The notes under the pieces are model-generated. The model worked only from the letters and a program-made list of their open reading frames with translations. It was not told where the DNA came from and searched no databases. From Blasia pusilla (taxonomy: Eukaryota), in contig CM114271.1 of the NCBI GenBank assembly GCA_050084515.1, positions 46,066,001 to 46,130,000 on the forward strand: a DNA stretch of 64,000 bases, given 5' to 3'. The position numbers were made by a program, and so were the translations under genes. Position 1 is the stretch's first letter. The number at the start of each line of letters is the position of its first letter. Positions 28,303 through 64,000 of this stretch are shown piece by piece.

Positions 28303-28303
<1 letters not shown>

Positions 28304-31300: not shown

Positions 31301-31759
31301 CCTTGGTTTTTAATCGTTCTCAACTAGCTAAATGTATCTATGCATCTTTTGCTACTTACAATATTGAGAAAAAATTTCCATGGGAAGCCGCTATTGATGT
31401 GAGTGATAACTACCCCCTAACCATGTTTGTATTGTGTCATCATAGCAAAACCCTCCCTCTTTTTATTCTCTTACTGAATTTTTTTTTCATTCTTTACCTA
31501 CTGCAAGTGAGGTGGGGGGAGAAAGGGGGACAAATGGATCTAGTGGGGAATGGGTGAAGGCCTTCCCTTATCCATGGGTTAGGGACTGGTCCGACTAACC
31601 ATGCCAACATCCCTACAACAGGTCTCATGGTTGGATTTGGGATAGTTCTTATCCCAACATGCATGGGGTTGGGATGTCAAGAGGTTCATATTGATTGATG
31701 ATGGTAGATGATATGTTGAATATAGATGATATTGTGAAGATTGAGGATAAATGAACACG

Positions 31760-33788
<2,029 letters not shown>

Positions 33789-34549: not shown

Positions 34550-37500
34550 AGCTATAGGTTAAGAGGGATTACAAGATGGATTGATCATGATGAGATATCT
34601 TGCTATTTCCATCATGGGATGAGTCTCTTTATGTGGTAATGTCCTTCGCTGGATTGGTAGTATTGCCATCCAATATAGGAAGGCAATGCATTTTGCAATT
34701 TGATTAGATCTACGTGATTTACTAGATAGAATACATTATTCAACAAGCAATGCAATACTTTAAAAAACAAACTTATCTCAAAAATTACACTAGCAACCAT
34801 ATGATTAAATATTTGAAACCACATACAATATTGTTGAGAACTAAAGAATGAAACTTCAATAGTTCAAACTTAGTTCAATCCAATAAGATTGAAAGTAAAG
34901 TTCATCAACATCATAATGAATTTTTAAGAACTTGTGCACAAGTCTATTATTATTGATGGTTGAACCGAGTCTTGAATGAAGTAATTATTGGAGAAAAAAA
35001 TCTTGTGAAAATAACACTAAGCATGGATGTTCACTGAATTGATACCCCATAGCCAACCATGGTAATTGTAGGTTCCACTCCCTTACATGTCCTTAGTGCA
35101 AGTCATACTTGTGTAATCCTCTTTTCATAACATGTACTACTATCTCCTCTGACCCATCTGGTTGAGAATGATCCTTGGATACATTGCAATGATCTATCAA
35201 CGCTTGACCACACAAGATCTGAAAATTTACTTTAAAATTGATACCTTTGTCACTTAATATTTTCATTGGTGTACCTCAATGACTTAATCTACGATCTATA
35301 AACATGTAAGATGCTCCCTTGCTCGTGTTGTTCATGAGTGCCACTAACTCAATCCTCTTGGAAAAATGCTCCATTATGAACAATACGTATCTATGACGAT
35401 ACCTTATCAAAGGAAACTATCATGTGAAGTATAGACTCCACTTATAGCCAAATCCCATAAACAAAAGGATGCAATTATGGATTGGGAGTATTGAAGGATG
35501 CTCATATTAAATCACACCATACATCTAGCCATAAATTGTTGAACATTGGTGTACATGCCATACCACCAATAATGAACGTAGAGGAAGCTATGAGTATGAT
35601 ATAATCCAAAATATCCCAACTCCTTATTGGCATGTTACACAATATCTTCTTGATATGAAGGACGAGTAAAATATGCCATCCACATTCTACCATCCATACA
35701 TCCTTCCACATTAATCTTTTGGATTAATGCATCATTCCACATTAATCTCTTTAATTAGAATCCAATCTGATTCTCTAGCCAAAGTTGCATATGATCAAAG
35801 TCTGTGTCCATGGACTTACGTCCAACCTATAAAAGGACTTATCCATATAGGCCCCATCTCCCCTACTTTCTCGCCTCTATGATCCGCACTTTCTCGTTTC
35901 TTCCTCCCTCCACCTCTATCTAAATCCTAAATCCCCGCCTGGCCTCCCACCACGAGTTATAAATATGGGCCCCACCTCTTGCAATCCATGTCCATGGACA
36001 TATCCAAACTTGTACGTCCATATCCGTCCTATGGATGATTTTTTGTTTTTCTGCAACCATATCCTTAACACTCACTTTACTCACCATGATGCCACTACGT
36101 AGGTACTTAAAAACCTTCTTATTGACATGAATATTGCAATTAACCAAAGCATATTCAATGAACTCTTGACCTAAAGACTAACCATGTGATCCCTCTATGG
36201 GATTTGTTTTCATGTTGTTGACTTGATATAATCCATCAACACATAAAAGGAGATCCGTATCAACCTAACACCATCTCGTTATCACCCTCTCCCTCTCTAT
36301 ATATGCCATCAAGCTCTTGTCACGTCATTCAAACTCAAACATGGGTTGCAACTCAACCCATCAGCATCCCGGTTCAATTGACATGACATATAAACCACAT
36401 CAAAATTGAAAACTCTTGTAGTAATAGAACCCACTTGGCAAGCTTTCTTGCAACTTGGTAAGACTCTATCAACCATCTAAATAGCTTATAATGAATAACG
36501 AGCATGAGGAATTTTCCAAATAAATGGCAATTGAAAGGTGACATAATAATTATAGCCAAACATTCTCCCTCAAGCATAGGATTTGTACCTCACCTCTATA
36601 ACTTTTTTTAATCAACTCGTATAAGCAATAATGAACTCCGAGTGCTAATGATTTCTACGAAGTATAACCATTCCAATAGCCAACATACTCCAATCCACAT
36701 GTAATAGGAATGGAAGACCCTCAATAGATCTCTGCAAAATGGGCAAGGACGTCAACATATCCTTGAAATCTTGGTACTTTTTCTTTTAATTATCTCCCCA
36801 ATGCCACACCTAATAAAATCTCTTCAACAAGGTCAAAGACTTTGCGATTATATTAAAATCCTTTAAATATCGTCGATAGAGTTTGCTAGTCTTAAGAATG
36901 CTTATGTTCGACTCACATCTATAGAATATGGAATACATGTTATATCCTCTATCTTTGTCTTTTGAACACCTAACCAACCAAGTTATATGGTGTTCCCTAC
37001 TTACTCAATATGATCCAACAAGAATTTGCACTTGTCTAGATGTAGCATTAGTCCATGTAACTTCAATCAAAGAAATACCACTTCCAAGTATTGCTAAACT
37101 TCGTCAATCATGGAACTGAAGATGATATTATCATTTATGTAACGCCACACATATTCCAAAAAATTTAGAATCCTATCCATGAACCTTGTGAGCTCTATAA
37201 GGGTGTTTTTTGAACCAAATGGTAAGAATCGTCATTAGTGCTAACAATCTCCATGGATATCCCACTATGACCTCTAGCATCATGCTCTATATTAGAAAAA
37301 ATAAACATATGTTACTTTGGTTATCTTAAGCCTTACATCATCTACTTAAACTATACGTCTTAGGAAGTCCATGGGTATCTATCTCTCTTTGTCTCATCTT
37401 TATTCAATGCCCCAACAATCTCCATGGGCAATGGGCTAACCCACGGGGGTGACAAAATAAATGACACTCGGATACATTGCTTCTCAACTAAACCCATCTT

Positions 37501-38030
37501 GACAATCCATGCAAGATAGTTTAAGTCCATCGCTTGACCCAACTCATATCTTCGAGGTAGCTTTGACACATATGGGATATCCATAGAAAAACCAATTGCT
37601 TACTATTGGTCATCCATGGTAGGCTCCTGCAATCCTTATGTTTGGTTATCTCATACATGCATGGTCATTCCTATTGAAGGGATGGGATGCTAGAAAACTA
37701 ACAAATGCAAGTTATGTTGCCCTAAAATCCCCCATTTTACTGGCTATAACCAATGGTGGTAAATCATCATGACTTAACACTTGAGAATGTTGCCTCAAAT
37801 CCAAGATAAAATCCAATATTAAGTGAGTTGTTGTTTGAACTCCACCATAAGCTCGCTCCAATACCTAAGATGGTAGAAGGTTTATCCATCACAATCATAG
37901 ATGATGTGCACACTATTTGATAAACTAATCGCCTAGCTTATGGCATAATCAAACTCCTACCATGTTCAGCCTCACCAACTCCATTTGGTTGAGCCTTAAA
38001 GTCCACAAATGGCTCCTTGTGCACATTTTG
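34550..38030 (-). mobile_element. Highly decayed DNMT-RT-RNaseH-integrase pol of the same lineage (copy 2)
   Basis: From 37909 downward: AHHL*L*WINLLPS*VLERAY (DNMT motif VIII), V*DNQT*GLQEPTMDDQ**AIGF (IX), LGQAMDLNYLAWI (X). RT YIND ~37140. RNase H EGECLA...KLAKWVLLLQEF 36577-36374. Integrase YKWSLYF...RYVLFIMEHFSKRIELVA ~35455-35340. Confidence 0.8.
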
Positions 38031-43818: not shown

Positions 43819-46800
43819 ATGCACAGAGCAACTGCAGCAGGAGGCGGAGGTCTCGGGGTTGCTCGGTGCTCGGAAGGATGGCTTCGGAATGCCGCGGGAG
43901 GAGGAGGTTTTGATGTTGCTTGCTGCTTGAGAAGATGGCCTCGGAATGCCGCAGGTTTTCTTCCATCGCAGGTATAATTGCTCTACAGGCGGAGCGATTT
44001 CTTTAGCTGCAATGAGATCCAAGTGTGAGTGTGAGTGGGTGAGGGTGGCGAACTGCGGTAGGATTTGAGGAATTGTTTGCTCCAGGTTAAGGCCGTGAAC
44101 TTTGTCGCCATGCGTCTGGGTGCGTTCGCGCTTGGTTTTTGTATGCGTCATGAGTTGTGGAGAAGTAGAATTTCTCGCGGAAGGTGGTGCATGGGTGGCA
44201 CGGAAATATGGGACGTGTCCGACCGGATCGGATTCGCTGCACTTCAACTTCATGAGAGTGGAACCCACTGGTGAACTGACGCGCGGTAGAATTGTTTCTG
44301 CGCTTTCTTGTGCCGTCGCTCGATAGTGGGAGGGAGAGGGGAAGCTTGCTGTTCGACTTTTTCAGCGTCAGGAGTATCTGAAGTATCTTCCGAAGCATTT
44401 ATGGCTTTTCTTTTCTGTATGGTAGTTCGTGGGGAGAAATCACGAATTGCGGCGTGCCAACTAGCGATCGATATGTGTTCGGTCACCGAATCTGACGGCG
44501 TCGAGGTTATTTCTTGCAGAATTGTAGGAGATTTACGACGTTGAAAGCATCGCGAGCAATCATCAGTCAGAATACCGGAGTATGCTGGGAGAGCCCGACT
44601 TCTCTAATTGGTTCGCTTAGCAATATTTTTACTGAGGTGTCGTTCCCTTGTCTTTATGCCATCGTCCTTGGTAGATTGCCGGTACTGTGAAGTTTGAGAA
44701 CGAACTTGAAGGGTACTTTTGTCGGCCTCCACTGAATGTAAAGTGTTTTCTTGCAAGTTTCTGTCATGTGTCGAGCTTCATGTGCCCCATAGATCTCTCA
44801 CATCGATAGTTGGTTGTAGGGTCAGGCCATAATTTCCCACGAATCAGCGAGGAGCAGAGAAGGTCGTTTCCTGAAAAAACGGGTTAATCTGAGTAGGTCT
44901 GCAATCAATCAGGTGGGCTCAAGAGCTCCCCAAATCATCCTCGTAATGGTCTTGGTGGTATCTCAACTTTGTCTCAGGGAGACTCATTTTTATCCTTTTG
45001 CTTCTAAGGCCAGTTGTCGAGCTGGCTCTGAGCGAGTTGTGTATTGAACTTGCATTGGTAACCGAATCTGCTTGCCATAAATCAGTTTCAATCTCTTACA
45101 AGTTGGATTTCCTTAGGACTTCTTGCCCTACATATGAATTCTCACCCACCCCCAGCGTTTGTTACAATTGCAATTGCCATGAAAATAAGACCGTCCATCC
45201 GAACACTAGGTCCCTTTGCTTACGGGAACCCTGTTTGTCTGTCTGTCTGTCAGTAGATTATGAACTTGCTCTTCAATCTCATAAGCATTTTACAATCCAG
45301 GGTGGAGAACATGACTCTCTTGTCACAGACGATCGGGCAGATGGGGAGATGGGGGTCATTGCTTCAGCTGATGCACAGGAAACACCTAGAATGGAATCCA
45401 TGCCCTTGAAAGCTCTGGTTCCAAAGTTGGAACCAGGTGACCCAGTGACAAGGTATGGAGGGATAGGGAAAGGGTTTATTATTTCATTAGATCAGGCAGG
45501 TTTCTTTTTAAGAGTGAAGTGGAAGATATTTTCAGATGCGCAGCTTGTGGAGAGTTTGGAAAATAGGCTCAATGCATCCATCGCAGTTTCGGCTATCACG
45601 GCTCTATACTTCATCAACACTAAGAAAATGTCGCAACGAAAATATTCATACAGGCTTGTTTGTCTACCCGTACAGTGCCGTGCTCACATGTTCCCTTCGG
45701 AAAATTGTGTTACTGCAGGGTTGGACAGAATATCACCGCTGGATATTTTATTGTGGCAGTTGGTGCACTGCTCTGGTTGGACTCTTCTCTATGGTGGATT
45801 GTTCAACAGCCCCTTGCCTCTTACTATCTCACTTTACCGTTTCTTTTATCTGCTGCAGTGACTGGCATTGTGGGCTACTTTTGTGTACCTGTACTCAAAA
45901 AATTAAAAGCAGATCAAGTGTTCCGTAGAGAGGGCCCAGCTGCACACTTACTCAAGTCTGGAACACCAACAATGGGAGGAATGTTTTTTGTACCAGTGGG
46001 TGTGGCAATTGCTTGGTTATTCACCCAGGTCGATTCTATTGAAGTCCATGGAGTGATTACAGTGACACTTGTCTATGCTGGGATAGGTTTACTCGATGAT
46101 GCCCTTACTCTCTGGCGCAGACACAACTATGGGCTCCCAGGATGGATCAAGCTCATGTTGCAGGTGACATTCCCTGAACGATAACTCATGAATCCAGATA
46201 TGCCATAATTACCTGTGTGTGCTTTTCATTTTCTTGTCCATGATCCTCACATGTGGATAGCGTACAGGTTGCTGCGGGTACTATATTTTCTCTTTGGCTC
46301 GAGACTGCCAACTTGCCATTGAGGTTGGTTAATTTCCTTGTAGGCATGCATGTCAGTATGGCCACAGTAAGGCTATGAAGAAAGCATTGACAAGAATCTC
46401 CTCAGACAAGTAGTAATCTGTCAATCAAGCAGAATGTGGTTGAAAGAACATGGATCGAGAAGATGATACCTACACAGCTAGACCCAATGTCATGTGAAGC
46501 ATTCATAATTAATGTCAAGGAGTCTGATAACACAACAAGGGCAGATAGATTACGAGTGCTTGAGAACAAATTAGTGTGAATGGTAACTTACTGGGTTGTG
46601 TTACTTCAAATGTGCAGAAGGAATATATTATCTCTACCCGCACCTTTCGAACCCCTTCAATTGGGCAGATGGTATCTACCATTGACAGCATTCTGTTGTG
46701 CAGCCATGAGCAATGGTGTTAATCTGACTGATGGGCTTGACGGACTTGCTGGAGGCACTGCTGCAGCTGCGTTCCTCAGCATGGCTGTTGCTGTGCTACC

Positions 46801-48295
46801 CAACTATCCGGGTATGAAAGGGATTCAAGTGCTTTCCATTGCAAGATGTTGCCTATCAAGTATTTGTCTACAGCTCCTTGTGGAGCTGTAGACAAATACT
46901 TGATGCTCACACTTCTTATTTTCTCTTGAGATGTAAATGTCACCATGATGCCCAATATTCTGCTGTGTTTCAATCTGACCAGAGGAAAACGTGAGTCCTT
47001 ACTTCGAAGAGATTGGATTCATTACTCCCTTTGACAACCCTCAAACTTGACTTCACTTACCAACTCCCACTAATTTAGATATTTCGCAACCTAAACTCTG
47101 GTACTTGTGGGTATTTCCAACTGCCACTCTCATTGCTTCTTCAGGTTCCTTGAAATGTATGAGTGAAAATCAATTTGAGCTAGTGGAGTGACACATGTTC
47201 TTGGTGGTAGATACTTGTCATGGACCAAGGTCTACAGGAGAAGGTACTGGTAGTTAACATCCAGTTTTCTAGCATTTTGTGGGGGAAGAGAAAATTGAGA
47301 TACAGATGGAAGTTGAATCAATTGTGGACTATTAACATTTTTTTAACTGTGCAGCGCTTGGTGTGTTTGGATCATCAATGGCTGGAGCGTGTTTCGGGTT
47401 CCTTGTGCACAACAGATACAAAGCAAAAGTATTCATGGGTGATACAGGATCCTTGGCCTTAGGCGGCGCACTAGCAGCTATGGCAGGATGCTCAGGCCTA
47501 TTTCTTCCGCTCTTAATTGCGTCAGGGTTGTTTGTTCTTGAAACTATTTCAGTAATGGGCCAGGTATACTCTCTCTCCATCTATTCTCTTTCTGTATCGG
47601 GCAAACTAATTGTACTCAGGGAAACTATTGTACTCACTAATTGGACCCCAACCCAGTCCAGCACAACCTTCCCGAACTTGAGATGATGGGAATGTGTAGT
47701 GAACCATCTGACAGCAATCTGCTTTCTCAGACTGCTTAGTAACAGCCCAAAAGGGAGTGAGCGTCAGTGGCCAGAGGTAGAGGCTCTGGGCCCCGGCGTT
47801 CTCATGAGCCTAAGAGTTTGACGCATAAATATGAACATGTCAACACTTTTGTGGAGTCTGATGACCATAAAATCAGTTGTACTCTTACCTTTATCCCGCT
47901 TGAGGAGCTAGCTCAAATTTTGCCCAAGAACTCGGAACAGCTGTGGGAGGCAGCGAACAGGTTTTCGAAAAATATTCAGATTTGAATCGCAAATCTCTGT
48001 TGTAGGCCCAAGGGAACCTCTTGTCATGATGTGGTTGAAATTCTTCCTTACTGGCAGGTACACTCTTGAAAATGTTTCCCCTCTTTGTGTATTGGTGCAG
48101 GTGTTCTATTTCAAGCTCACCAAAAGCTTGTATGGACAAGGTCGTCGTTGGCTTCGAATGGCACCTTTCCATCATCATCTGGAGTTCCTGGGCATGAAAG
48201 AACCTAGTATAACATCCGCAGCCTATGCGGTAGGGTCGGCCTTGGCTGTGCTGGCAGCGTACATCGGCCTCTCGTGCGCGAAAGTTCAATTTTAA
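43819..48295 (+). CDS. MraY: Phospho-N-acetylmuramoyl-pentapeptide transferase (plastid MraY / translocase I). Confident exons: 45719-46163, 46268-46323, 46618-46811, 47355-47563, 48101-48295. Tentative N-terminal exons: 43819(or 43651)-43971, 44520-44579, 44820-44912, 45301-45452
   Basis: MraY motifs [53 protein letters not shown] and MAPFHHHLE. All listed exons have GT-AG borders with compatible phases. The N-terminal exons rest on splice sites and phase only. Confidence 0.92.
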
Positions 48296-49319
48296 CATAC
48301 AAGGCAGTAACTGCGGAAGGATGATTATATGAAGTGTAAAAAGTGTCGAGGCCTTGGAGTCATGGAATCATCGAATCTACTTAGGCATTGATGGGCGCTA
48401 CTGGTGAAGCAGTCGTGACAGTAGACCTAGCAGTCAATCTCTCGAGCCATGGGATGGGCGAGAAATGGACGAGGTGCTATGAAGAAAAGTAACGAGAACT
48501 GATAGCGACCTAAAGAACGCGTGGGGATGTGCGCAAATCTGGGAGCTCAATTTGACTTGGTGTCCAATGGTTTCTCTTGTCCAAGGTGACAGAGGAATTA
48601 CATGGCCACGCCAGGTACGAATGTGTAGGGCCATGTGGTCGGTTCTCCCCACACCAGTGTGACGGTGATTCATGTCTTCCTGTAACCTAAGATTTTGGAG
48701 TTACTAAAGTAAACTACTTTCATATGTTCGCATTATTTGTGTTCCACTCCACGACCTACCACCTCTGATTGGGGTGGATCCATGAATTATTTGCCGCGAT
48801 CTCCTCAGATGATTCCTCTCGGATTCTCCTACAGCCAATGCAAACTTCGGAAGAGGCGGTGCGATTGGCTCAGCCGCAGCCCCTCTGTTACAAGGATGTA
48901 GATTCTCGTGGCAGTCTGCTGTCTCCAGGGAAAGCGTGAAGCGAAATGATTGCTTGTACCGCCCCTGCGAAGAAACAACGGGGCCCGCGGAAGCCCTCAC
49001 GAAGAACAGCAAACCACTCCGGAACACTGACTTCTTGTGGGCTTTTAAAAGGCGACCATCTGAAGTGGTCTCGCCCGGTGACCCACCTGAGCGATGTCGT
49101 GCGGATAAAGGCTAAAGGCTAGAAGAAGCTGACAAATCTATTATTTACTCGGAGTCTCGGATCTGTGGAGAGCTTATCGGTGCCTTCTGCCTGTTCGAGG
49201 TCTGCACATTTCGGTCCACTTGTCTGCGGACGGTTCCATAAGCTCAGCAGAGGCTCAGACTGAAGGTACGTACTAGGAACCATTAAGGGGCGGCTTCTTC
49301 GAGGTCTGCTGTACAGGAG

Positions 49320-49600
49320 TAGCCCTCAAAACACTGCGGCAAAGCAGTAGCGCTTAAAATCACCGCTGCAAGTTCTGGTCTTCAAAATCGCCGCGGCAAA
49401 GTTGCAGCCATCAAAATCGCTGCAGACGTAGTCCTCGAAATCACTGCTGCGAAGTTGCATACCTCAAATTCACTGCTGCGCAGTCGTAGACTTCAACATC
49501 ACCGCTGCATGTTTGTGTTCCTCGAAATCACTGCCGCGGAGTGGTAGCGGTTAAAACCACTCCTGGAAAGTAGCAGCGGTCAAATCACTGCAGCTGAGGA
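49320..49600. repeat. Degenerate ~26-30-bp tandem repeat (~10 units)
   Basis: Recurring aaatcac(t/c)gc(t/g)gc...agt.g.ag..ctc units. Confidence 0.8.
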
Positions 49601-49707
49601 CTTCAAGTTTGGGAACTTGTGTAGAGCGGAAATCGCCTCAGAGGTCAGCGCGACGCTGTAAACGAGCTTTGTAAGGATAGGAAGTCGGGAACGATCATGA
49701 CTCGGTG

Positions 49708-50295
49708 CCGGAGCGGTAGGCGTAGGAAGAAGCGGCCGAGACGCCACACAGCCATGGCTGAGAGAAGGAACTCGACTTCGAGAGCACTAGAAATTCTCTG
49801 AAACAATCAGAGAGGATTCGATAGCGTTGGACACCACCACAATCCGCGGCAGCCGCGGCAAGACTCAAATTAGGTTTGCAAAGATGGGAAGTCGCATCTT
49901 CCTATCTTTGCAAATCTAATTTGAGCTCGGAATCGGGCCTCAGGGCAGGAGCGGAGCGGTAGGCATAGGGAGAATCGGCCGAGCCGTTACAGCTATCGCA
50001 AAGAGAAGAAAAGAAACACGACTACGAGTGGAGCACAACTTCTCTGAGACGACCGTAGATGATTCGATGGCGTCTGAAACACCACCACAATCCGCCGCAA
50101 GATTCACATTCAGGTAGTAGGCAGTCGGGAAGAGAGAATCACGACTCACTGCCGCAGGGGTTGTTGAAAAGCGAGGGAGGGGAGAAACGGCCATGGCTGA
50201 GAGAAGAAACTCGACTCGGAGTGCACTAAAAACTCTCCGACCCAACCAGAGAGCATTCCATGGCGTCGCACACCGCCACGGTCCGCAGTCGCCGT
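49708..50295. repeat. Three diverged ~105-150-bp direct repeats at ~230-240-bp spacing
   Basis: cggagcggtaggc(g/a)tagg...gccatggctgagagaag...actcgact...gcac...attc(g/c)at(a/g)gcgt...cacc(a/g)ccac..tccgc at ~49708, ~49952 and ~50188 (the third is 5'-truncated). Confidence 0.75.
49864..49925. ncRNA. 28-bp stem / 6-nt loop hairpin (candidate miRNA or hairpin siRNA precursor)
   Basis: CTCAAATTAGGTTTGCAAAGATGGGAAG - TCGCAT - CTTCCTATCTTTGCAAATCTAATTTGAG. The two non-Watson-Crick pairs are G-U on the + strand. The hairpin is certain; its function is unproven. Confidence 0.35.
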
Positions 50296-52339
50296 GCGAG
50301 CTTCCCAAGCTCACACGCCTCTATTCTCCTCAGAGGCCCTCCAACTCCATAGCTCCGCATCTCACGCGTTTCCCGGCGGTCCAGCGCCGCACTCCGAGCT
50401 CTGTTTGCCTGGAATGTGGGGCGGCGACGACTGTCCCGTCGCAGATACGCCGTGTCGCGCGGAAGGGGACAGGGGCGCCCGCGCACTTTCCGCTGTTCCG
50501 GAACACCGTCGATCGCAGATGCTTATCATCTGACGTCTCTCGTTTCCCGGCGATTGTTTTTGGCTTTCTTCCGTCTTTTACGGGCCCTCTCCGTCATAGA
50601 AGGCAGTGAAAGAGGTCTATATCAGTGTCCGGGGAGAACCGGGGTTACGTGTTCAGTTGGCCATAAGAATTTGAGAATTTCCGATTCGGTTCGTCACTTA
50701 TCGGCAAAAAACGGAGGGTTTAGGGACGGTGTCCTTTGAATTCGTATCTGTTCAGCCGGCTGGGATGACGAAAACTTCAAAAATTGTCGCTCGGTTTTGT
50801 AGAGACCGGTAATGTACTGGTTGTCACGAAAAAACTCCCCACACCCTGGTCTATATGGTAATAGAGGAGCCGTTTTCAAATGTTGCCAAGGGAAAATTTA
50901 TGGAGAATTTATCGGGTATCTTTGAATCTTGCATGGGTAGGGCGACGCGTGGCATGGGTAGGGGGCATTAAATAACGGGGTGTTCAGGATTAGGTCGTTT
51001 GAATCATGCATGAGTAGGGCAACAGTCATCACCCTAAGTAATGGGGCGGTCAGGGTTAGGGACCATGGAGTGGACCATGCATCGCACGGTCTCCTCATGG
51101 GTTTTAGCTAGTAGGTCTTAAAAGGGGAGTTTGTAAGGTTTTTGATTTCAAATTACAATAAGTAGGATTCATTTTAATTATCTATGTAATTGAAAAAGGA
51201 TGAGGTTACACAAAACCTCTCAAAGGTTTCTCATGGTGTTGACACATGCCACTTTAAGAGATGAAGTTCAACTAAGAGGATTAAATTAAATGAAGAAGGG
51301 AAATGAATGTCGGAGCTTTTTAAAATTTGAAATCACACGTGTATAGACTAGGTAGTAGATTTTAACATAGTCTTTCTTCAATCACCCATTGTCTATACGG
51401 TTAGAATGTCGTTTGTTGGTTTACTTTCATCCTAAGGCTTGTGCTCTCAAATCTTAAGAACTTTTTTTCCCATTCGCTTTCTTCTTAGTTGAATTTTATT
51501 TGGTTTCACTTGTTGGGATGATTATGTTTATATATGTGTTACCAAATTTCCGATATTTACATTAAAATGGAATATTAAGAAAGTCATTTCCAGCATTCGA
51601 TATCTTTTACATCTGAATGCAATCTAAATAAATCAAACTTATCTTCAAAGAATGCCTCGGTGAAGATGTTGACCAAATTTTTTATATCTCGTCATATATA
51701 TAAGGTCCATGTCATTTGCTAAGACCCTCTCTCAAACGATCCGATATTGTACCTAAATGAGTTTTTTCCTCGTATGAAACACTTGATTCTTTTGTTAATG
51801 AGTGTTATTAATATGATTTGCATGTATGAAAGCTAACTTTAAACATTGGTTGCCTATATCTACAAGATAGTTTTTTAACCCAACTTATTCACATTTAGTC
51901 ATGGTTGATTCTTCTGAATCAACTTCTGTTTTCGGCAAGGAAATAGTTGGTTATTACTTTAGTGCCCAACTTACTAAAACACTTCCAAATCTGAATACAT
52001 ACATGAAAGTAGATCTTTTATCAAAGGTGCTCCTTGCCCAATCCAGAGCAATATATTATTGTAGCCATAAAGATTCAGTTGATGAATGACAAAATTTGAA
52101 TGGACTTGTAAACTTCTTATACCTTAAGATCTACCTCATTAGATCCAGATGAGGTTTTTGGGGCCGATTGCATAAACCGACTCATTAATCCAATAAAAAA
52201 GAAGAAGATATAGACCTGCGATAGTCAATTAGATCAAGATTCCAACCACAACACAATATATGTTGGGATCTCATTATCTTTATCTACTTTAAACTTCAAA
52301 CTTTGGTCCAATTGCATGGGAATTGACATGCGAAGACAT

Positions 52340-55300
52340 ATAAGTAGGTCTTTGTGTGTAGAGGTATCTATATGTGAGGCATAAAAAGACGGTAAGATGA
52401 GTCTCACTTCGAACAATGATCCACTTGAGGAAGTATTTCCTCATATCTTACCAATGTCAACAACGCAAGATTACGAGATTTCCTTGTCCAACGACATGTT
52501 GTTGTTGGGGGACGTAGGGCCTAGATCGGATGGGTACCAGTCATTTATTCATTGTAAGTTTTCTATGTTAGGGTTGGTCAAGTGCTAAATAGGGTGGGGG
52601 GGGGGGGGGGGGGGGAGGAATTTGGCGTATGTGGGGGCTTGGGAGACCCTAGGTTTGAATTCTTTAGGGATATGGTGGAGATCTTATGACATCCGCAAGA
52701 GCACTAGACTAATTCTCCACACACATTCTAGAGAATGTCCTAATTTTGGGTGAATCTTAGTTTAGGGTGATGATGAAAGTACATCATGTTCGTGCATGAT
52801 TGGACCAATAGTATTGTTGGATGCAATGAGTGTGGGATTGCGCCCGCATTTTTGCTCCTCTAGTGGACAAACTTGATGCCACATAAGGTGTTCAGGAGAG
52901 TCTATGCAATAGTGGAGCAAAACTCTTAAATGTTTGTGAATTCGATTTTGGATCATGGATGTCGATCATAAGCAATGAAGTAAGATGGTCAACCCCCCTC
53001 GAGTGTGATCAATATAGTTGGTATGCGACAAGCAACACTCTCCACACTGGTGAATTTCCCTACCTCTAATGCTTACAAGGAGGGTGGTTATGGTTTGATT
53101 TGGGATGATAAAGTGCAATGGATGGTGGAGCCCAATGTTGATGAGTGAGAGAGCATGATGAAAATTTTCCATAAGAGTGACAATAATGTTGTTATTGAGA
53201 AAAGAGTCTCGACCCCATATCCTCGGTTAAGCTGTGGATCGAAATTGCAATATATATATTATCACTCTAGGAGTGGCTAGCAACTTCAAATGCAATTGAG
53301 GCATGTTACCTCTCAGGAACTTGTGAGCCCTATGCCTAACAAGATGGAAAAGACAATAGCTAGGGGCAAGGCAAGAGGAGATCCATGGATCAAAGGTAAT
53401 CAAGAGAGACACCCTTGAACTTCTTGGGATATGATGTAGGTACGCTGAGACATGAGAATTATGACACTTGGTACCATGCAAGATTTTAATCACTTAAGTA
53501 TATCGAGAGGAGAGACATCTAAGTTGGTTGCACGAGAAGAGTAGAGTACTAGTGATAATGAAGGGGTTGCATAATAACTATTAACCCTATGTTGGAGAAA
53601 ACTATTGCATTCTTGATGGAAATATGGGAGCCAAAGTTTGGGCCTAAGTTGACATAAGGAGAGCGACACTGGGTACATTGGTCCATCAGGAGTCAACCAA
53701 GGATATGTTGAAGCAACCAAGGATCCACATTGAGTTGTCAAGTGACATATTGATCTTCCGATAGTACATGAAATGAGATGGACATGGCTATGATTTAGAG
53801 CAAGAGTAAGAGTTTAGTTGAGGTAGACGTAGTGGAGATGTTGTACGGAGAGTATACCTAGGCTATTGTCATGCCCATAACGAAGGATGTGCTATACAAT
53901 TGATGTATAGGTAGATGTGTGGAGACTATCAACCTATCAATTGAAAGACAAAATCTAACTTGTATACGATGTCCATGCTAGAGGAGGTCTTTGATGCCAT
54001 TGGGTATGTAAGGGTCTTTAGATCATTAGATCTATAGTTGGATACCTTCAGGTGCCTACAAGGGTGGAGGATAGACGGAAGATGATATTTGGTCACAGGA
54101 AGGATTGATTATACCAATGGCGATTCTTATCATTTTGATTAAATAACACCTCGGTAGAGTTTCAGAGAGTCATGGTGGAAATCTTACAAGATTTCGATTT
54201 TTCCAAATGTTATATTGATATTATTGTAGACTTTATTACCATGGGTGAGAAGCATGAGCGACACCTTGCGGAGATGTTCTAACAATTATACTTACATAAG
54301 CTAAAGCGATATCTAAGCAATTGCAATTTCTTCTATGCCTAGATTGAGTACTTGGTTCATACAATAAAATAATGTGAACTTGATATTCAACATACAAAGC
54401 TAAGGGCTATCTCACGTATTCTGCGCCCTACAAATGTGAGTCAAGTTTGTGCATTCATGGGATTAGAAAATTTCTATTGATGATATGTTAGGGTGAATTC
54501 AACACGATTGTGAAGCTTTTGACCTTATTGTAAAATATGGACCATAAATGGTAGTGGGAGGATGATCATAATAGAGCATTTCAATTCCTTAAGGATTGAT
54601 GAATGTCAAAATACACACGGCTTGGAGTATATTGGAACTTAGAGCGGTGCTCATCAAACATGAGGATAGAGAGTTTGTATTGGATTGCACTAGCCGCTCA
54701 AAGAATCTTGTAGAGGAAAAGTACAACTCGTATGAGGGAGAACTCTTGGAGGAAATATGAGCGGTTGTGCATTTCAAGAGTTACTTTTTTGTTAACCCCT
54801 TTACCCTCATCATTTATCATCAACCATTGAAATGGTCGATGAAGTCTGACAAGCTTAGAGGGAAGCTTCAAAGGTGGGCATTATTGTTACATGAGTATGA
54901 TTTCCATGTGGTACATCAACCTAGAAGACTCAATCAAGAGGTGGATGGTTTTAGTTGTAACTCATGCCAGTGTTAGCTATTGGAGCTCATTGTATGGGCA
55001 TGGTAGGAATATGAGGAGATGGTTCTTGGTTGGCATACATCTACCTATTTAGTTTTATTGGCCATGGAGAACCATAAGACCTTGATTGTAATGACAAGGT
55101 CGAATGGAGAGTTCGAGGTTGGTGAGGAGGTGACATGTGGCCTAGATACCCGAGAGGATGGATTAGTCTTAGAGTACCTACATATTGGTAGCATATATGG
55201 CATGCACAATGGGTTCCAAAGAGCGGAATTGGATCCTCTAGCAAGCTAGATGGTTTAAGTGGGAGGGGGTTTATGTTTTGTGAGTTTGGGAGGATTGTAG

Positions 55301-55600
55301 AGTACGAGTGGTGCCTTATCCATTATTTAGAGCTTGATTGGTTTAGTATACCTACAAGGAATTGGGGCATTTTGGAGTGAGGTGGACATATAGGTTGCTC
55401 AAAGTTCATTATTAATGAATTACTTTTGTTTAATGCTCTCACTATTGATCATGGATTTATGCCACCGAAGGAGTTTGGATTTTATGGCCTTTATCATTGA
55501 TGGAGTAGCATGATCAATATGTACTAATAATTGTCGAGGACTTCTCGATGTGGATTGAGTTGGTTGCATTTCCCAACAAGGCGTGTGAGTGAGTAGCATA
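52340..55600 (+). mobile_element. Decayed DNMT-RT-RNaseH-integrase pol of the same lineage (copy 3)
   Basis: RYLYV (motif II) ~52365, FLC*GWSS (IV) ~52560, HILENV (VI) ~52725, L*WTNLMPH (VIII) ~52860, GLIWDDKVQWMVEPNVDE (IX) ~53095, ILG*AVDRNC (X) ~53220. RT CGDYQPIN and YIDI 53920-54225. RNase H 54700-54960. Integrase start ~55350-55580. Confidence 0.85.
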
Positions 55601-58600
55601 TGCACTCTTGGACTAAGTGTCAAGTCAATATGACACAATAGTAAAAGTGCATTGAAAAATCATTTAATGTTCATAATGAGGGTAAAAATTTGCTATAGTA
55701 CATGAGAGTCTGAACAAATGATGTAGGATTGATGCTCAATATTAGCACTTGATGAGCGTAGGAGTACGTTAGCCTTTCCTCTTCCAAACCCCATTTATAT
55801 TGATATATTTGAGGAAATGCATATGGGAAGAAAGATGAGGATTGATAGAATGGTTCTTACTGACGTATCAATTAGATCATTCGTCACTTGAAACACTTGG
55901 TCTCGTGCATGGAAAAGGGTATATACATCTTTCATATGCTTGATGGTGAGGTATTCCCATCTTGTGTGTGTTGACACGTGACATCCAAACCATGTATTAA
56001 GACATGAATCATGAAAGGATAGTCCAAGAAGTCTAGAATGCACACCATGAAAAATAGGGATGCATACTTACAAAAGAGGAAGTTTTGACTCATTCGGCCT
56101 TGATCACAAACAATGCAAGGAATCAATATTTTCTTCATTTTTGATAAAAATCATCCCACTATTCCAAAAATCCCTTGGCCAACCACTTAAGTGAGTGTTG
56201 CATGTGATTCTTCATTTGTTGCATCAGAGTTGAAGGGAATTTTGATTTACAAGGAAAAAACCTAAGTTCTTGTGATGGGTCATGTCAAATAAAGGTTGAT
56301 GGAGAAAAGATAAAGAAGTTTGGAGATCAAAAAAATTGGCGAGAGCAATGGGTCAAACGTTTCATACTCATCTGAAATTTGAAATCGAACATAAGATATA
56401 GTATCACAAAAGTAAGAATGTGGATTATTAAGATTACTTGGAAATAAAATATCCAAGACACAAAGCTCGACTTTTTGAATCGCACAGATAAGAAATATTT
56501 CGTAAGTAAGATTGAGAAGTTTATTTCAATTTGTGAGTAACAAAATCCTCAAAGCCAATATTCCCACTTAAGGATAAAAAATAAACACAAGTTTGTTGGA
56601 ATAACATTGTAATACGATCATTAGAAAATCTTTGATGCCTAAAGATATATAACCATGCAAGATCTTACAAATAAAATACTATCCTTTTACTAGTATGAAA
56701 AGAAGAGTCACAATATACAACCCCTAGTTAAAGGTATCAAAACTAGTGTGAAGATGTTATAATGGGGACGTGGAAGAGCACAACAAGGTATAGATCAATC
56801 TCCTCCATTATATAAAAGGTTGATATATGTTGCAATTTTAGATTTTGATATAGATAGAATAAGGAGAGTCGTCTTCTAATATTGTGGAAGGTGCCTATCT
56901 ATGGGAGCAGACACTTAGAAGAATAGAAGAAGAAGTGATTTCTTGTCCATGAGAAACCTACTTGGCTTATGGAACCTTCCACATACGTGATCTTGACATC
57001 GCATCCAACAAACACCTTCACATTTAGATTTCAAACATTTATATTTGGAGTTCCCACATATATGAAAGGCACAAGGTGCAATCTCTCGAACATGGACCAT
57101 CCACGTTCTATATTGCTGTATGGTCGAGACCGCCCTCCATTGTCCAAGGGGAGAGTTGATCAAGGGACCTGTCATAACTTTTTAGGATAGATTGGAGAGA
57201 TCTGGTAGAGTGACTTTGCGAGTAGAGGAGGACAAGCTCAAGAGGTCTAGGATGACCTGTTGAGGTCATGGGAAACTTGAGAGAGCAAGTTTTCCCTTTG
57301 TTTCGGCTTCATTTGGAACCATATAGACAAACTTACTATTTTGGGTAAGTTTCTATGTTTGGTATAGTTAACTTTCCACTTTTGGAAGTGGCCCTTGACC
57401 CACTACAACAGGTCAAGAGCCAAGGAGGTGACCTGCGAGTGTAGGTTACGGAGGAGAGAGCTTGGGAGAGGGAAGGGGGTACACCTCAAGGAGAGAGAGC
57501 TTGAGAGCTCATTCTCTCTTTGTTGAACTTCTTGGCATGAGGCGGAAGAGCTATGGTCTTGCTTGCCTTGTGAGTGTAATCCAAGCCTCTCATTAGGAGA
57601 GTGGTTTTGGGTTGACATTGAGAGAGACATGTGAGAGTGCACACATTTGAGAGTAATGGTGTTGAGAGAAATTGGATCTACTTGATTTACAAAGAGAGAA
57701 TGAGTGAGTGAGAGAGCTTCATGGGGGAGCTCGATGGCCACTCGCTGGTTTTTCAGGTTGGGGATCGTATACCGCGTTCAGCGGTTCATGGGAGTGCTAA
57801 CCGGAGCAAGAGACGCTTAATTTTGATGTTTCTTTTGCCGATTTTTCGTGTGGAAGAGTGGAGCACGGAAGCGCTGCCCAAATTTTTATAGGGATTGAGT
57901 ATGGGGGTGGGTTGCCCCATGCCGGTGCTCTCAAGAGCACCGTGTAGCTTGCTAATTTGTATTTTCACAAGTTTTAGATTTTTGTTAGAAGGAATCAGCG
58001 TGGAAGCGCTGTCAAATTTTGCATAGGAGAAAGAGACGTTGGGTTGCACAACAGTCCCCCTCAGTTTTTGGTGGAAAAGAAAATGGAAAAAGGGTCATAG
58101 ATCGGAAAGTGGTGTACGCTGCTGAAGAAACAATGCACAATTTGGAGATTGGAGCACGGAGTTATGATCATTTTTGTTGGGCTGCCATATCCACCGTTCC
58201 AAGGTGTGAGTGAAATTTCGAAATTTTTGGGTAGAAATTCTCTCTTGAGAGGTAGAAAAAAATTCAATTTACTTGGTGGATAGTTCAATTGAATTCAGCT
58301 ATTTGGAGGTAGGGTGAGTAGATCCCATTTTAGGGGGGTGTTGACCCTCAATCTTAGGAGGGATTTGTGGTAAGGTATTCAATTTGCAGACTTGTCAAGA
58401 GGGGGTTGTCAAGTAAGGAAAGATAGTGGAGATCCAATTTTCCCGGGGGTTCTTCTAAAATTAAATTAAATTATGGCGGGGGACAACAACTGTCCTACCA
58501 CGTCCTAGCTGACTATCTCGGAGACGCGCAAACCGGTTGTGCACTTGCTACCGCCGTTGTATGTTCTGTGGTCCGTTGACGCTTCAGGGCCGCTATCCGG

Positions 58601-61590
58601 TTGTCAGACCTCCTAATGTCGAAACAATATTGAGCCGTCGTGCAGCCGTGTGCAGCTCTGTCTGACCCTATGTTACTACCGCCCGTAGAGCCGGGCATTT
58701 GAATCTCTGTCTCAGACCGCCGCGACTGCCTGTGTTCGCAGCCGGCCGTTTGCATTTTTGGATTGATGGGGTGGTAGTGTTTTTTCCGCTTTGTTATGCC
58801 GTGATTTGTAGCCGTTCGAGGAAAATGGAGTATCGTGCCGTGACGCCCCTAGCCACAATGGGCCGTCGATTGCCACGCCGAGCCACTTGTGGCTGCACCA
58901 CACCGTCTTGATCGCCGAGCCGCACCATCACTGAAGAGCAGAGTGTGTATTGCTGTTGAGGAGGGTATGCGCTGAGAGCCGCACCCTATTATCGAGTGCC
59001 GTGCTGTTTGTAACCATTCGAGTCGCGAGTGGCGCACCGTACCGCTCGACCCGCACCGCACATCAAGGAGATTTGAGCATCGTCAGTACCAAAGGAGTAC
59101 GATTTGCTGCTTGGAGGAGTTGTCTTCACGACCGAGTTGGGGTCAAGGTTTTTTAGTTGCTGAGGCGTGACATCGACACTTATTGTTATGTTACCCATTC
59201 TGGTCTTTTGCCCTGCACGTGTTAGGGATTTTCGGGTATTGGGCAGTTATTTGGGATATTGGGTTTCGTGCTGATGTTGAGAGCATCATTGATGTATTGG
59301 TTAGGGGATATAGACCTGTGTTGGACATCGAGAATTGAGGGTGTGTCCTATCAATAAGATGATAGGACAGTAGACGATTTTCCGCACCACCCCGCTTGTT
59401 GCCGCACAATACACGTCTCAGTGAGAGAGTGTAGATTGAGTGCCGCATGTTGGATTGAGTGATTGAATGATTACTCGCGAGATTGGGAGTGATCGTATGA
59501 GAGGGGCACAAGAGTCATCATGGCGTTCTTTTGGGACTTTGAGAGGCGAGGTGGTGGATCTTAGAGTAGCTCTAGAGGGTTTACCCGGAGTGGTGCGAGG
59601 TTTTGAGAGTCTCCATGTGAGAAACCACCTCGATCTCCAGCTGTGTCGTCTTCAGACAAGGGGGAGAGTGTAGAGGAGTGTGCTAGTGATCCACCACACA
59701 CATTGAGTGGTCCTACCAGTTGGGTGTACGAGATGGATGACCGGGATAGAAGACCGCGTAGGTTTTCGAGTGCTATAGGCACTATAGATTTAGACCATTT
59801 CATTGCGGATTTTAGGAGTTGGTGTGACTCACAACAGGCTAGGAACTCAAGAGAGTTCAACCCATTTACAACATGGAATGGAATGTTCTAACATTTAGAG
59901 GGGGCATCCATGGACGATTACCATGAGTTCTCGTAGAGATATGCTCATGAGATTGAGGCCTGGAGACTCTACTATGACCCACACTATGTGTCATGGACTG
60001 ATCCGTTTCCAGATGAGGAGAAGGAGTAAGGAGAGGGTTCCTCCACCAGTGATGTTGTAGGAGGGATGACTCGCACTAGAGCAATTACATCGTCCAGTCG
60101 AGTTCGTCCTAGTTTCAACCCCCTTGGTTGAGTTCTTCACTGAGTTGAGGGCGAGTTACGAGGGGGTACGGACGGAGAGGTTACGGAGCATCCATGACTT
60201 CCAGAGGCGTCCGGGTGAGAGTTTGCGTGAGGCCTACACTCGCTTGCGCCGGTTGATTAACGTCACTCAGGGGGTGACAGAGGCTCAAGCTCTCCAGTCA
60301 TGGTACACGATGCTGGACAAGACCCTACGAACACGGGAACGGGAAGGGGTGCTTCTTATGAACACCTCCCCTACGTTGAGAGATGTTTTTAGGACTGCCG
60401 AGAACATTGAGTGCAACATGGCGGAGGGGACCGTAGCCACCATGGGTTGTGGGCAAGAGCAGTCACAATTGTGTGCACCACCAATGCAACAACATGGATT
60501 CCGAGATAGGTCTGTGGCACCACGAGCCCAGGGAGGATACCAGGAGGCCGTGCCATAGAGACCTGTGCCTTCATATGTAGCTCAACAACAGCCGCCTACT
60601 ATTACTTGTTGGTCATGTTGTGGAGCCCATCATCAACGCGATTGCATTCGTCAGGGTCATGGACGCGTGCCTCAGCATGGAGGAGGAGATGGTGTTGCAC
60701 TAGGAGGTTATTAGTGTGACTATTGTCAGAGGTACGATCATAAATGCGCCAAGTGTTTCAGCTTGTACCCTGAGTTACGTTCGGACTGAGGGCTAGAGAG
60801 GGCACCAAAGCAAATTTCCAGTCGGGGTGGGCCTAGAGGTCGTGCACCAGGTGGTCTCGTTGGGGGATGAGGAGTTGGATTTGCCCGAGGGGATGGTGGA
60901 GTTGCCCATGGAGGAGGTAGAGTCCCACCACCTAGACCCGTCAAGGGAGATGCCGGGCGTGAGGTTGGGATGGCTGCTAAGATCTTGCAGCTACAACAAC
61001 AGATTGCCCCTATGGCATTGAGGTTACCCGATGCCGGATCTGTGGCATCGACATCTTATGGAGCCGTTAGACGTATGGAGGATCTTGGTTGGATGTGCGA
61101 GGTTGCCCAGATGGAGGCCACCGCAATTGTTACCGTGGAGCAATCGTAGAGTTGGATCTAGAGCGAGGGGAAGCCATAAAACAAACCAGGCTTCCTCAAT
61201 CCTTCACGTTGTCCGAGGCAATGAGGACCCCATCGATGGGTCCTGATCAGAGTTCTCAGAGACTTGGTGATGTGTTGGTGTGCAGGCACATAGGGCGATG
61301 GAAGAAGCAAGTGCGATGACTCCTATTCCTGATGCTCATGAGGAACATGTGTCGAGCACGTTGTTGGGGGCGGCCATCGTTGTGTCCCGCGCTCTTTTAT
61401 TTTTTGCTTCCGATGTTATGACGTTGGGAGGTACGCCCGCCGAGGTTTTCCGGCCGGCCGCTATGCTGTGTGAGCATGGAGTTGGAGTTCCTACATCATG
61501 TTCAGAGGTGATTGCAGAGGAGGTGATGGAGCTTGGAGCTTATGCTCAAGTCGTCCACGTCAGATTCATGGCAGGCTACGGCTAGTAGGA

Positions 61591-62199
61591 TGGCAAAGCC
61601 CGAAGCCCAAAGCATTACGGAGACTTGTAGACCAAATGGCTCTACGGGTCAGCCACTTTATCCAAGAGGGCCCTGCCAATAGTACGGGACTCTGGTGGTA
61701 TAACCCGATCGGCAACATAAGTAGTAAGTAGGTGACTCAGCCCAGGACATGAAAAAAAAGCCTTCTTTGGTAAAGCCAAAGCAATTTTCCTCGAGTTTTC
61801 AAGGCCCCTTAACAACAGTCAAAACCTCACCCAAAGATAACGTTGAAAAAAATCCGTCGACCGTAGCCGACACAACTAAAACCCTATGAATTGAAATTCC
61901 ATTCAAAATTTAGATTTTTCGTTCTGTTCGAGAGTTTCGAGTTTCTTCAAAATTTCGCGTGCGGCTCTTGACGGCCCCGTATTCCACTGCCCACCTACTT
62001 CTCTTATGCTTGCAATAGGGCCAAATGGATAAGCCTTATCCATTATTGATAATATTAATATAAAAATATTATTATTATTTCCTGATATCTCCGTCACATT
62101 TGCGATAATTTGTCACCGTTGCGCATTTCGGTCCCCGGGAACTAGCCTCTCTGGCCGTTCAGTTTCTTTTTCTATGAAGTCAAGGTCGAAGGAGCTCTA
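61591..62199. mobile_element. ~610-bp nested insertion, possibly an unrelated solo LTR, with 5-bp TSD TAGGA
   Basis: Composition differs from the flanking gag/pol. TAGGA at 61586-61590 and 62200-62204. Ends are TG...TA rather than TG...CA. Internal AT-rich TATA-like block. Confidence 0.5.
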
Positions 62200-63152
62200 T
62201 AGGATCCCCAGGTACGGTTTGTAGAGCTGTATCCTAGATCTTGAGCCCCATTGACATAACTATGGGTGACCTAACAATCATAGCATAAATATCTACGATG
62301 GGATAAGCAAAGATGCCCGCTACACCCGCGATAGAGCGTGCCATGGCTTCGCTTGGTGTTGTGTTGCTGGAAAACGGGGGAGAGGTCTTCCACTTGGTGA
62401 GTCCACGAGGTAGGGGTTTTAGTCCGCAACGCGTCTTGTTGGATTAAGGAACGCAACCCCTGATGTTGGGGAAAGCGGTTTCAGAGGATTGGGCTTGACG
62501 AGAGCCAATATGGAGCGTTGTCCATCTTGGATACATACATCCTTGGATGGAGCGAGTACCACACAATATATCACATGAGAGGAGGTCATGGTGAGGATTC
62601 GGCTAGGACATGCTACAGATGAGTCAGTGGTACAAGCCAAGGCGATAGTGACTCATGCAGAGTCCTACGACGTCTTTGTTGGTGGAGCAGTGTTTGTACC
62701 CGATGGGGTTTTCATTGGATTACTGGGATGAGGCAGCGTCCTATAGACCAGTATGGCAGTCCGGTGATGGACGTCTTTGTTCATTACCAGTTTGATTCAC
62801 ATGTGCTGTGATCGAGCAACGGCCAGGAGAGCTGACGACCTTAGCAGCATTTAGCAGCGCCATCACTTGGCCTAGTGATTCGATTGAGGGACATGTTCAT
62901 GCAGAGGATACTCCCATTCTTGACATTTCTATGGAGAGGAGTGTCATGGTCGCTACATCATTCCATGGAGGAGAGGTGCCGCTTTGGGGTCCGATTGAGG
63001 AGCTTCAACGCTTAGCCACTGAGCATGTGCAGACCGCGTGGAGCGAGACGTTTGCACGAGAGCGTGACGGGTCAGAGGAACCCGAGGTAGCCGAGAGTGC
63101 TATGATGACGCCCTTGGATACCACACCCATTATGTGGTGCGTTCCAGAGGAG

Positions 63153-64000
63153 GATATTCGTGTGCTTGATCTCTTTGGCGGGATTAGCACTAGTGTAGCT
63201 ACTGTTTTGCAGGCTGGAGTACGCGTGCAACAATACATATATGTGGAGATTGATGATGTTGCAAGGCGCGCTGCACTTCACCATGTGGCATTTTTTTTTC
63301 CCGACTTTTTGTTTGCGTCCACTTTCCAAGGATACCAAAGTTCCCTACCAAGGGATATTGCATTGTTGGGGGCGTAGGACTTGGAGCGGGTAGAGACCGT
63401 AGACTTGGTCATTGCTCGTTGGCCGTGTCAGGGCCAATCGAGTGTTGGACAAGGTAGTAGGTTAGCTGACACTTGGTCTAGGTTATTTTGGGAAATGATG
63501 CGGATTTTACGACACTTGCAGGAGCATTGGTCCCGTTCTCCAACATATATTATGGAGAATGTGCCGATCTTGGGAGATTCAAGGTCACGGGTGGTGACGA
63601 GTGCACATCAGGTGCATGCATGGATCAACTCAGCAATATTTTTGGATGTGGCAAGTGTAGATTCTAGAGCACACCGCTCGCGTCTTTGGTGGACCAACTT
63701 GGTGCCACACGAGGTATTGCGGAGGGCATATCCGCGGGTGGAGCGCCCCTCCTAGTTGTTGGTGGATTCCATATTAGATCCCGTCCGTTGATCACAGGCA
63801 GTGAGGCACCATGATCGATCTTTGTTGACTGTGGTCAATAGGATTGGCATGCCACGGGCAAACTTCCCCATGTTGTGAGTTTTCCCGCTTCCTATACATT
63901 CAAGGAGGTTGCGTTTGGCTTGGTTTGGGATTACCAGGTAGAGCAATTGGTGGAGCCCAATGCCGATGAGCAAGAGCAAGTGATGGGATTCCCCACAGAA
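63153..64000 (+). pseudogene. C5 DNA cytosine methyltransferase domain (DNMT3-like) inside the retrotransposon pol
   Basis: Ordered motifs: I (DIRVLDLFGGI), II (YIYVEID), IV (DLVIARWPCQ, Cys codon 63426), VI (YIMENV 63555), VIII (RAHRSRLWWTNL), IX (EPNADEQEQVMGFP at the window end). In-frame stops at 63375, 63753 and 63789 and a frameshift near 63880. Confidence 0.93.

Follow-up and report, generated by a model that had tools for sequence, protein, structure and literature searches.

Can a retrotransposon of a land plant carry its own enzyme for methylating DNA and, if so, what would that enzyme act upon? The question is raised by the right-hand end of a stretch of 64,000 nucleotides from the liverwort Blasia pusilla (GenBank assembly GCA_050084515.1, contig CM114271.1, positions 46,066,001 to 46,130,000 of the forward strand), called the window below and numbered from its first letter. 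Hosts hold transposons in check above all by methylating cytosines, and an element that brings its own de novo methyltransferase therefore reverses the usual picture. A sequence-only reading of the window had proposed such an element, namely a Ty3/gypsy retrotransposon with a DNA methyltransferase (DNMT) between its protease (PR) and its reverse transcriptase (RT). The analysis reported here leads us with considerable confidence to the same view. Positions 59733-64000 of the plus strand are read as the 5' two-thirds of a decayed Ty3/gypsy copy, hereafter copy 1, of a family whose Gag-Pol polyprotein holds a DNMT3-class enzyme between PR and RT, an element of the kind described as KnitGypsy-Dnmt3.

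Layout of the element copy

The following parts are recognised in copy 1, from its 5' side to the end of the window.

59733-60777, + strand: gag, capsid-like part, with five stops in the aligned frames and one frame change (tblastn and a weak PF03732 match)
60607-60645 and 60715-60756, + strand: two CCHC zinc knuckles, seen in the translation; relatives carry PF00098 at the same place
61134-61525, + strand: stretch between gag and protease, homologous to residues 454-573 of the Marchantia polymorpha protein P0205
61595-62310, no strand: insertion of 716 bp, private to copy 1 or to a minority of copies, 43% GC
62313-62795, + strand: aspartic protease with two frame changes inside; relatives carry PF13650/PF13975 at this position
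62796-63161, + strand: linker of ~120 residues between PR and DNMT, conserved in liverwort proteins and in copy 4 of the window
63162-64000, + strand: C5 cytosine methyltransferase domain of the DNMT3 class with motifs I-IX, cut off by the end of the window ahead of motif X

This succession of parts is matched along almost its whole length by P0205 (1278 aa), whose residues 14-1164 are colinear with copy 1 over 59763-63997 and which matches the PR-DNMT part at E 3e-128. On tblastn the gag of copy 1 shows 43-44% identity to residues 14-354 of the same protein, and the Pfam match to PF03732 in this part is weak (E 0.0056). Copy 1 is without introns, since a single high-scoring segment pair (HSP) of 541 residues against the Marchantia protein spans PR through DNMT. 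The linker between the two domains matched no Pfam family, and the frame that opens at its first letter, 62796, continues into the methyltransferase. The active site of the protease lies at 62430-62456, and the start at 62433 that the sequence-only reading had given to its feature falls inside it; the D-x-G of this site occupies 62442-62450, and its middle codon is a stop (62445-47).

Whole-genome and RNA reads of the same species were mapped to 44001-64000 and counted from 88% likeness. In 271 whole-genome reads, and in RNA reads as well, 61594 is joined to 62311, so most sibling copies are without 61595-62310, and in the alignment with P0205 the gap across this insertion amounts to 22 residues only. 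Upstream of gag, sibling copies seem to differ, to judge from the depth profile and from 389 whole-genome reads that share a loose end at 60125.

Class and predicted fold of the methyltransferase domain

A search with the Pfam family PF00145 had been named beforehand as a check on the methyltransferase. The domain was found on the open reading frame 63378-63752 with 38.6 bits, above the gathering score of 22 (E 1.1e-9), and it was the sole Pfam match when the three plus-strand frames of 58000-64000 were read with X at stops (34.6 bits). Within the DNMT of copy 1 the conserved motifs are located as follows.

63162-63191, + strand: motif I
63234-63254, + strand: motif II
63417-63440, + strand: motif IV (W-P-C-Q, with the catalytic Cys)
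63549-63563, + strand: motif VI (E-N-V)
63669-63701, + strand: motif VIII (R-x-R-L-W-W-x-N-L)
63974-63997, + strand: motif IX

These motifs stand in canonical order and are colinear with those of DNMT3A; motif X is kept in the liverwort relatives, which retain motifs I to X. Taken with the PF00145 score and the 541-residue HSP, they bear out the earlier statement that an intronless C5 methyltransferase with motifs I, II, IV, VI, VIII and IX lies downstream of gag and protease. The further statement that the catalytic Cys is intact stands only in part. The Cys is indeed present in W-P-C-Q, but copy 1 is a pseudogene and encodes nothing: three in-frame stops (63375-77, 63753-55, 63789-91) interrupt the DNMT itself, and its frame shifts near 63866. 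Furthermore, the residue that precedes W-P-C-Q is R in copy 1 against G in 94 of 102 relatives. Among the 104 relatives used for the tree described below, the catalytic Cys is kept in 100 of 102 and the Q that follows it in 98 of 102, the E of ENV in 104 of 104 and its N in 95 of 104, and the R-x-R of motif VIII in 97 of 102 and 99 of 101. Because the catalytic residues are kept in nearly all of these relatives, the DNMT of unbroken members of the family would very probably be an active methyltransferase.

As to its class, a sequence search of the solved structures in the Protein Data Bank (PDB) with the domain of copy 1 (phmmer) gave DNMT3A/B/C as the best 29 of 34 matches, DNMT3A being reached at E 1.7e-8 and the next class at 0.013. 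A 14-sequence profile of the DNMT matched DNMT3A at E 1.5e-22, with profile positions 4-241 on DNMT3A residues 4-217. The same profile matched DRM at 1.6e-12 to 9.7e-10, HaeIII/HhaI at ~2e-8 and DNMT2 at ~1e-6, and no DNMT1 at E 0.01 or better among these structures. DRM was matched solely through its permuted C-terminal part, profile positions 5-133 lying on DRM residues 229-351. A structure was then predicted for a natural relative, P0203 of Calypogeia fissa, and not for the broken copy of the window. The DNMT domain of this model has a predicted local distance difference test (pLDDT) score of ~80-97, and among the top 50 Foldseek ranks the 33 listed are DNMT3A/B/C entries throughout (best E 3.1e-18), with a target-normalised TM score of 0.81-0.83 against DNMT3A. 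No PWWP or ADD reader domain was found with the element DNMT. Both by sequence and by this predicted fold the element DNMT is of the DNMT3 class and non-permuted, unlike DRM, in agreement with the DNMT3-like enzyme that the sequence-only reading had seen.

Other copies in the window

The window holds further remnants of related elements.

52308-53433, + strand: copy 2, DNMT remnant of an older, low-copy lineage
53915-54590, 54608-55132 and 55218-55649, + strand: copy 2, RT, RNase H (RH) and integrase (INT), in this order, 3' of the DNMT remnant (Pfam RVT_1 and RT_RNaseH; tblastn with P0015 and P0210)
37354-37909, - strand: copy 3, DNMT remnant, region of motifs VIII to X
37225-36893, 36902-36407 and 35664-35006, - strand: copy 3, RT, RNase H and integrase, in this order, 3' of the DNMT remnant
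24042-30853, - strand: copy 4, with direct repeats of 487 bp at 24042-24528 and 30366-30853, 89% alike
29863-28402, - strand: copy 4, gag
25436-24807, - strand: copy 4, one frame with protease, linker and DNMT motif I, after which the element breaks off without the remaining DNMT and pol
~26577-26028, - strand: LINE-like RT nested in copy 4 (RVT_1, 32 bits)

The order PR-DNMT-RT is consistent in the window, because copies 1 and 4 show gag-PR-DNMT and copies 2 and 3 show DNMT-RT-RH-INT. Copies 1 and 2, each interrupted by stops and frame changes, share 66.7% identity along 504 bp, and flanking direct repeats are seen among the window copies in copy 4 only. The same order is found outside Blasia in the proteins P0015 and P0167, where Pfam places CCHC-PR-DNMT-RT-RH-INT in one open frame. 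Hence the placement of the methyltransferase between PR and RT of a Ty3/gypsy pol, as first proposed, is upheld by the four copies of the window and by these two proteins. Two further features were observed in this part of the window. An open frame of 257 aa lies at 27157-27930, upstream of the LINE-like RT nested in copy 4, and an isolated C-terminal integrase fragment of another gypsy element, which matches P0015 and the Klebsormidium nitens protein P0210, lies at 31758-32190 on the plus strand.

Relatives in other genomes

A HMMER pass over 1.84 billion representative proteins returned 1237 relatives at E <=0.001 and 293 at E <=1e-10, and the best 150 of the 1237 were classed by BLAST against the domains of P0015. 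In 13 of these best 150 the DNMT stands beside a PR or CCHC upstream or an RT downstream, in 38 it stands between RNase H and integrase, 98 are pieces with the DNMT only and one is ambiguous. One protein of the RH-DNMT-INT class, to which P0014, P0026 and P0048 belong, comes from Scenedesmus, and some proteins of this class carry a PHD finger. A tree of the DNMT was built from 104 of the 150 hits together with the window, the other 46 being left out for short coverage; it is unrooted and drawn without host DNMT3. All 37 RH-DNMT-INT rows of this tree fall into one group of 61 rows, which holds neither the window nor any of the 13 PR-DNMT-RT rows. The window itself is found in a clade of nine rows (support 95) with P0004, a PR-DNMT protein, and a protein of Spirogloea.

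Organisms were obtained for 8 of the 30 hits that were looked up, with Closterium represented by five and Klebsormidium, Spirogloea and Scenedesmus by one each. The nearest cluster of the Protein Atlas is eukaryotic, most commonly Streptophyta, and serves as a lead only. When longer proteins were searched with a profile, 24 matched at E <=1e-15. The best of them is P0203 of Calypogeia fissa with 60% identity, along with five Marchantia polymorpha models at 47-57% identity (Mp_4g09160, which is P0205, and four MARPO models). Further matches come from Sphagnum fallax (P0221, 42%), Klebsormidium and Mesostigma, and twelve are proteins of Closterium. Some of the Closterium matches pair PF00145 with a copia-type RT (PF07727). 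By their sequence likeness the elements are shown to be akin to those of liverworts, of a moss and of streptophyte algae.

Copy number and transcription

Whole-genome reads cover copy 1 at a depth of 132-842, whereas the single-copy host gene at 44-49 kb has ~0.42. The bins of the DNMT have depths of 561 and 187, and since these match the flanks, at hundreds of times the baseline, the DNMT is as repeated as the sequences on either side of it. The family comprises roughly 300-2000 copies, which are diverged. A single-copy depth of ~0.42 from 1966 million letters corresponds to a genome of ~4-5 Gb, a very rough figure that stems from ~14 reads. Just upstream of copy 1, at 57341-58007, very high-copy short repeats reach a depth of ~1356 against the baseline of 0.42, with sharp loose ends at 57386, 57562, 57618 and 57834 and a strong RNA signal.

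In three stranded RNA runs the DNMT bin 62677-63343 displays values of 16.8, 17.5 and 22.3 in sense versus 2.8, 0.4 and 1.3 in the opposite direction. The plus-strand MraY gene of the window is covered almost solely by read pairs with the first mate on the minus strand, and the element shows the same orientation. As the orientation of its RNA equals that of the MraY gene, the family is transcribed in sense. Some of the RNA reads carry the 61594-62311 joint and therefore derive from other copies than copy 1.

Host genes and the surrounding window

An exon of a TCHQD glutathione transferase at 10235-10783 (minus strand) has 70% identity to Marchantia, 53% to Sphagnum and 42-45% to angiosperms, and an exon of MraY at 45717-46157 has 59% identity to Marchantia and Riccia, 52% to Mesotaenium and 47-50% to angiosperms. 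In word-limited searches these two genes match liverworts best, the TCHQD exon giving the strongest clue, and so does the element itself. Together they point most probably to a liverwort outside Marchantia and agree with the land-plant host that had been supposed from the letters alone. The exon region of the TCHQD-class glutathione S-transferase spans 10235-10936 (minus strand). The other gene, an MraY-like phospho-N-acetylmuramoyl-pentapeptide transferase at 44500-48700 (plus strand), is expressed in all three RNA runs and has nine GT..AG joints; among these are alternatives at 46158/46160, and the one that links 45792 with 46086 is minor. Rfam gave no match on the whole window. A GC-rich block at 6000-9600 (52-56% GC versus 43% for the window) has open frames of 187-232 aa on both strands, and no Pfam family was matched there in six frames.

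Decay of the copies and alternative explanations

Several observations weigh against the view that 59733-64000 belongs to a gypsy family with its own DNMT3. The RT, the RNase H, the integrase and the 3' end of copy 1 fall beyond the window. Within the window no long terminal repeats of copy 1 were found by direct-repeat search or self-BLAST, and a motif scan for the primer-binding site gave 3 matches versus 5.05 expected by chance. Over 59763-63997 copy 1 has 16 in-frame stops and at least 5 frame changes, and all four copies of the window are broken and represent related but diverged lineages. Among the 32587 reads mapped to 44001-64000, 190 are at least 99% alike, 30997 are less than 95% alike and 24898 show a partial fit; with so few near-identical and so many partial reads, the estimate of copies can be taken only as rough, and the family is perhaps an old one. 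The RNA level per copy is very low and could represent read-through. As for the host, a tree of MraY with 10 rows places the window beside the liverworts, at an open fork. Lastly, the number of captures of a DNMT, or a single capture shared with Klebsormidium, is not readable from the DNMT tree, because the latter is unrooted and has no host outgroup.

The breakage of the four copies and the mass of reads below 95% likeness would also be found if the family were a fossil, extinct in this genome, with all copies relics, a DNMT without present function, and transcripts that are read-through or come from dead copies. The base changes point the same way. Over 44001-64000, sites with A/T in the window and G/C in the reads number 466 (A>G 246, T>C 220) versus 245 for the reverse (G>A 128, C>T 117), an excess which fits C-to-T decay of old copies, as expected for deamination of copies that had been methylated. 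The observed/expected ratio of CpG is 0.73-0.75 for copy 1, against 0.40 for copies 2 and 3 and 0.49 for the host gene, a comparison that gave no clear signal of self-methylation. However, a threshold of 88% with one decayed reference cannot reveal young copies of a sister subfamily, each of the three RNA runs contains sense RNA, and in Marchantia and Calypogeia the annotated relatives are long open frames from which no motif is missing. We consider complete extinction of the family to be somewhat unlikely. A second way to account for the locus would be a chance chimera, in which a retrocopy or fragment of a host DNMT3 inserted a single time into a gypsy copy without being part of the element. 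Insertions within insertions are indeed frequent in this stretch, as seen from the LINE-like RT of copy 4 and the 716 bp of copy 1, but four insertions of diverged lineages share one order, the DNMT is as deep in reads as its flanks, at hundreds of times the baseline, and the same order recurs in proteins of Marchantia, Calypogeia, Sphagnum, Closterium and Klebsormidium. Against this evidence a single accident retains next to no probability.

The alternatives that concern function take the element family for granted. In unbroken members the DNMT would be translated as part of Gag-Pol and would therefore enter the virus-like particle along with RT and integrase. Once in the particle, it might add methyl groups to newly made cDNA or to a fresh insertion, so that the copy would arrive already marked, as de Mendoza et al. 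(2018) proposed for SymbioDIRS-Dnmt3 in the accessible text of PMC5890265. The element's own new cDNA or fresh insertion may be the target of the enzyme, which we hold to be somewhat less likely than not. The enzyme might instead act in trans or serve another purpose, by methylating host DNA or rival elements, by limiting the element's own transcription, or by methylating RNA. Indeed, the same text raises RNA methylation for SymbioLINE-Dnmt and calls the role in each family unclear, and it describes the element copies of K. nitens as themselves CHG/CHH-methylated and silent (PMC5890265, accessible part). On the other hand, the sequence and the predicted fold are those of the DNA enzyme DNMT3 and not of DNMT2 or DNMT6, and a location inside Gag-Pol favours action within the particle. 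None of this tells one target from another, and we judge an action in trans or upon RNA to be unlikely. It would be more improbable by far that the DNMT fold is kept as a non-catalytic module, a nucleic-acid-binding part or structural spacer in Pol, given that Cys, ENV and R-x-R are kept in nearly all of the 104 relatives and in every liverwort protein that extends over these motifs. In its widest form, the reading of copy 1 as a gypsy element with a DNMT3 would make it a member of an old streptophyte lineage, running from charophyte algae to bryophytes, with about a thousand copies in the liverwort, whose active DNMT3 would mark its own cDNA or insertion site from within the particle and would perhaps add to the host methylome. 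This full picture is offered tentatively and, taken as a whole, is unlikely to hold in every part.

Comparison with known systems

The accessible text of PMC5890265 describes KnitGypsy-Dnmt3 of Klebsormidium nitens as an intronless, non-permuted DNMT3-type domain in a Ty3/gypsy Pol, with its key residues kept. The precedent to which the sequence-only reading had pointed is real and has the same domain order, since the K. nitens proteins P0136 (CCHC-PR-DNMT) and P0210 (DNMT-RT-RH-INT) show the published layout to be the one found here. P0210 has 29% identity to copy 1 over 414 residues (E 5e-28), and both KnitGypsy-Dnmt3 and the window stand outside the RH-DNMT-INT group of the unrooted tree, which lacks a host outgroup. 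The two differ in that KnitGypsy-Dnmt3 is described, in the same accessible text, with 'fewer copies', whereas the present element has hundreds to thousands of copies and inhabits a land plant whose genome, to judge from read depth, measures several Gb. For KnitGypsy-Dnmt3 a DIRS-like repeat arrangement is also described, as is purifying selection on the DNMT among copies (Ka/Ks under 0.2). Moreover, the identity between them is ~30%, and the closer kin of the Blasia element are proteins of Marchantia, Calypogeia and Sphagnum.

These hypothetical proteins are open gene models that keep all motifs, in contrast to the broken copy of the window, and copy 1 can be followed colinearly along P0205 through gag, PR, linker and DNMT. 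The sequence-only reading knew of no characterised family in land plants. It was right as regards the literature searched, in which no account of a land-plant retrotransposon with a DNMT came to light (supplementary tables may list bryophyte copies) and no paper names the Marchantia models, but unbroken homologues are already annotated in Marchantia, Calypogeia and Sphagnum under the name of hypothetical proteins. A 2025 paper in Molecular Biology and Evolution and a 2026 preprint, in their accessible parts, mention retrotransposon DNMT3s only by citing the streptophyte case of 2018.

Host DNMT3 enzymes (DNMT3A/3B/3C) are the best match both in sequence and in fold, with colinear motifs and a motif VIII of the form R-x-R-x-(aromatic)-W-x-N-L. 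The element domain differs from them in being without PWWP/ADD, embedded in a polyprotein and intronless, and its identity to human DNMT3A is ~23% in the fold alignment. DRM2/NtDRM have a related catalytic domain, but theirs is circularly permuted and that of the element is not. The gypsy elements of the RH-DNMT-INT type, for example the 'pol' of Scenedesmus sp. (P0048), likewise keep the catalytic residues but hold the DNMT elsewhere in Pol. SymbioDIRS-Dnmt3 and SymbioLINE-Dnmt also represent C5 methyltransferases borne by retrotransposons with their catalytic residues kept, but DIRS and LINE are different classes of element.

Thus the Gypsy-DNMT3 kind of element is already known from Klebsormidium, and its occurrence in a land plant is what is new here. 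The homologues of Marchantia, Calypogeia and Sphagnum offer a tractable system, transformable and with published methylomes, and as unbroken ones exist in Marchantia polymorpha, the function of transposon-borne DNMTs is testable in a genetic model plant. Counts of DNMT3 genes in bryophyte genomes may include transposon copies. The sole case described so far in the green lineage is the low-copy family of Klebsormidium, to which the present window adds a land plant with hundreds to thousands of copies and with transcripts of the family.

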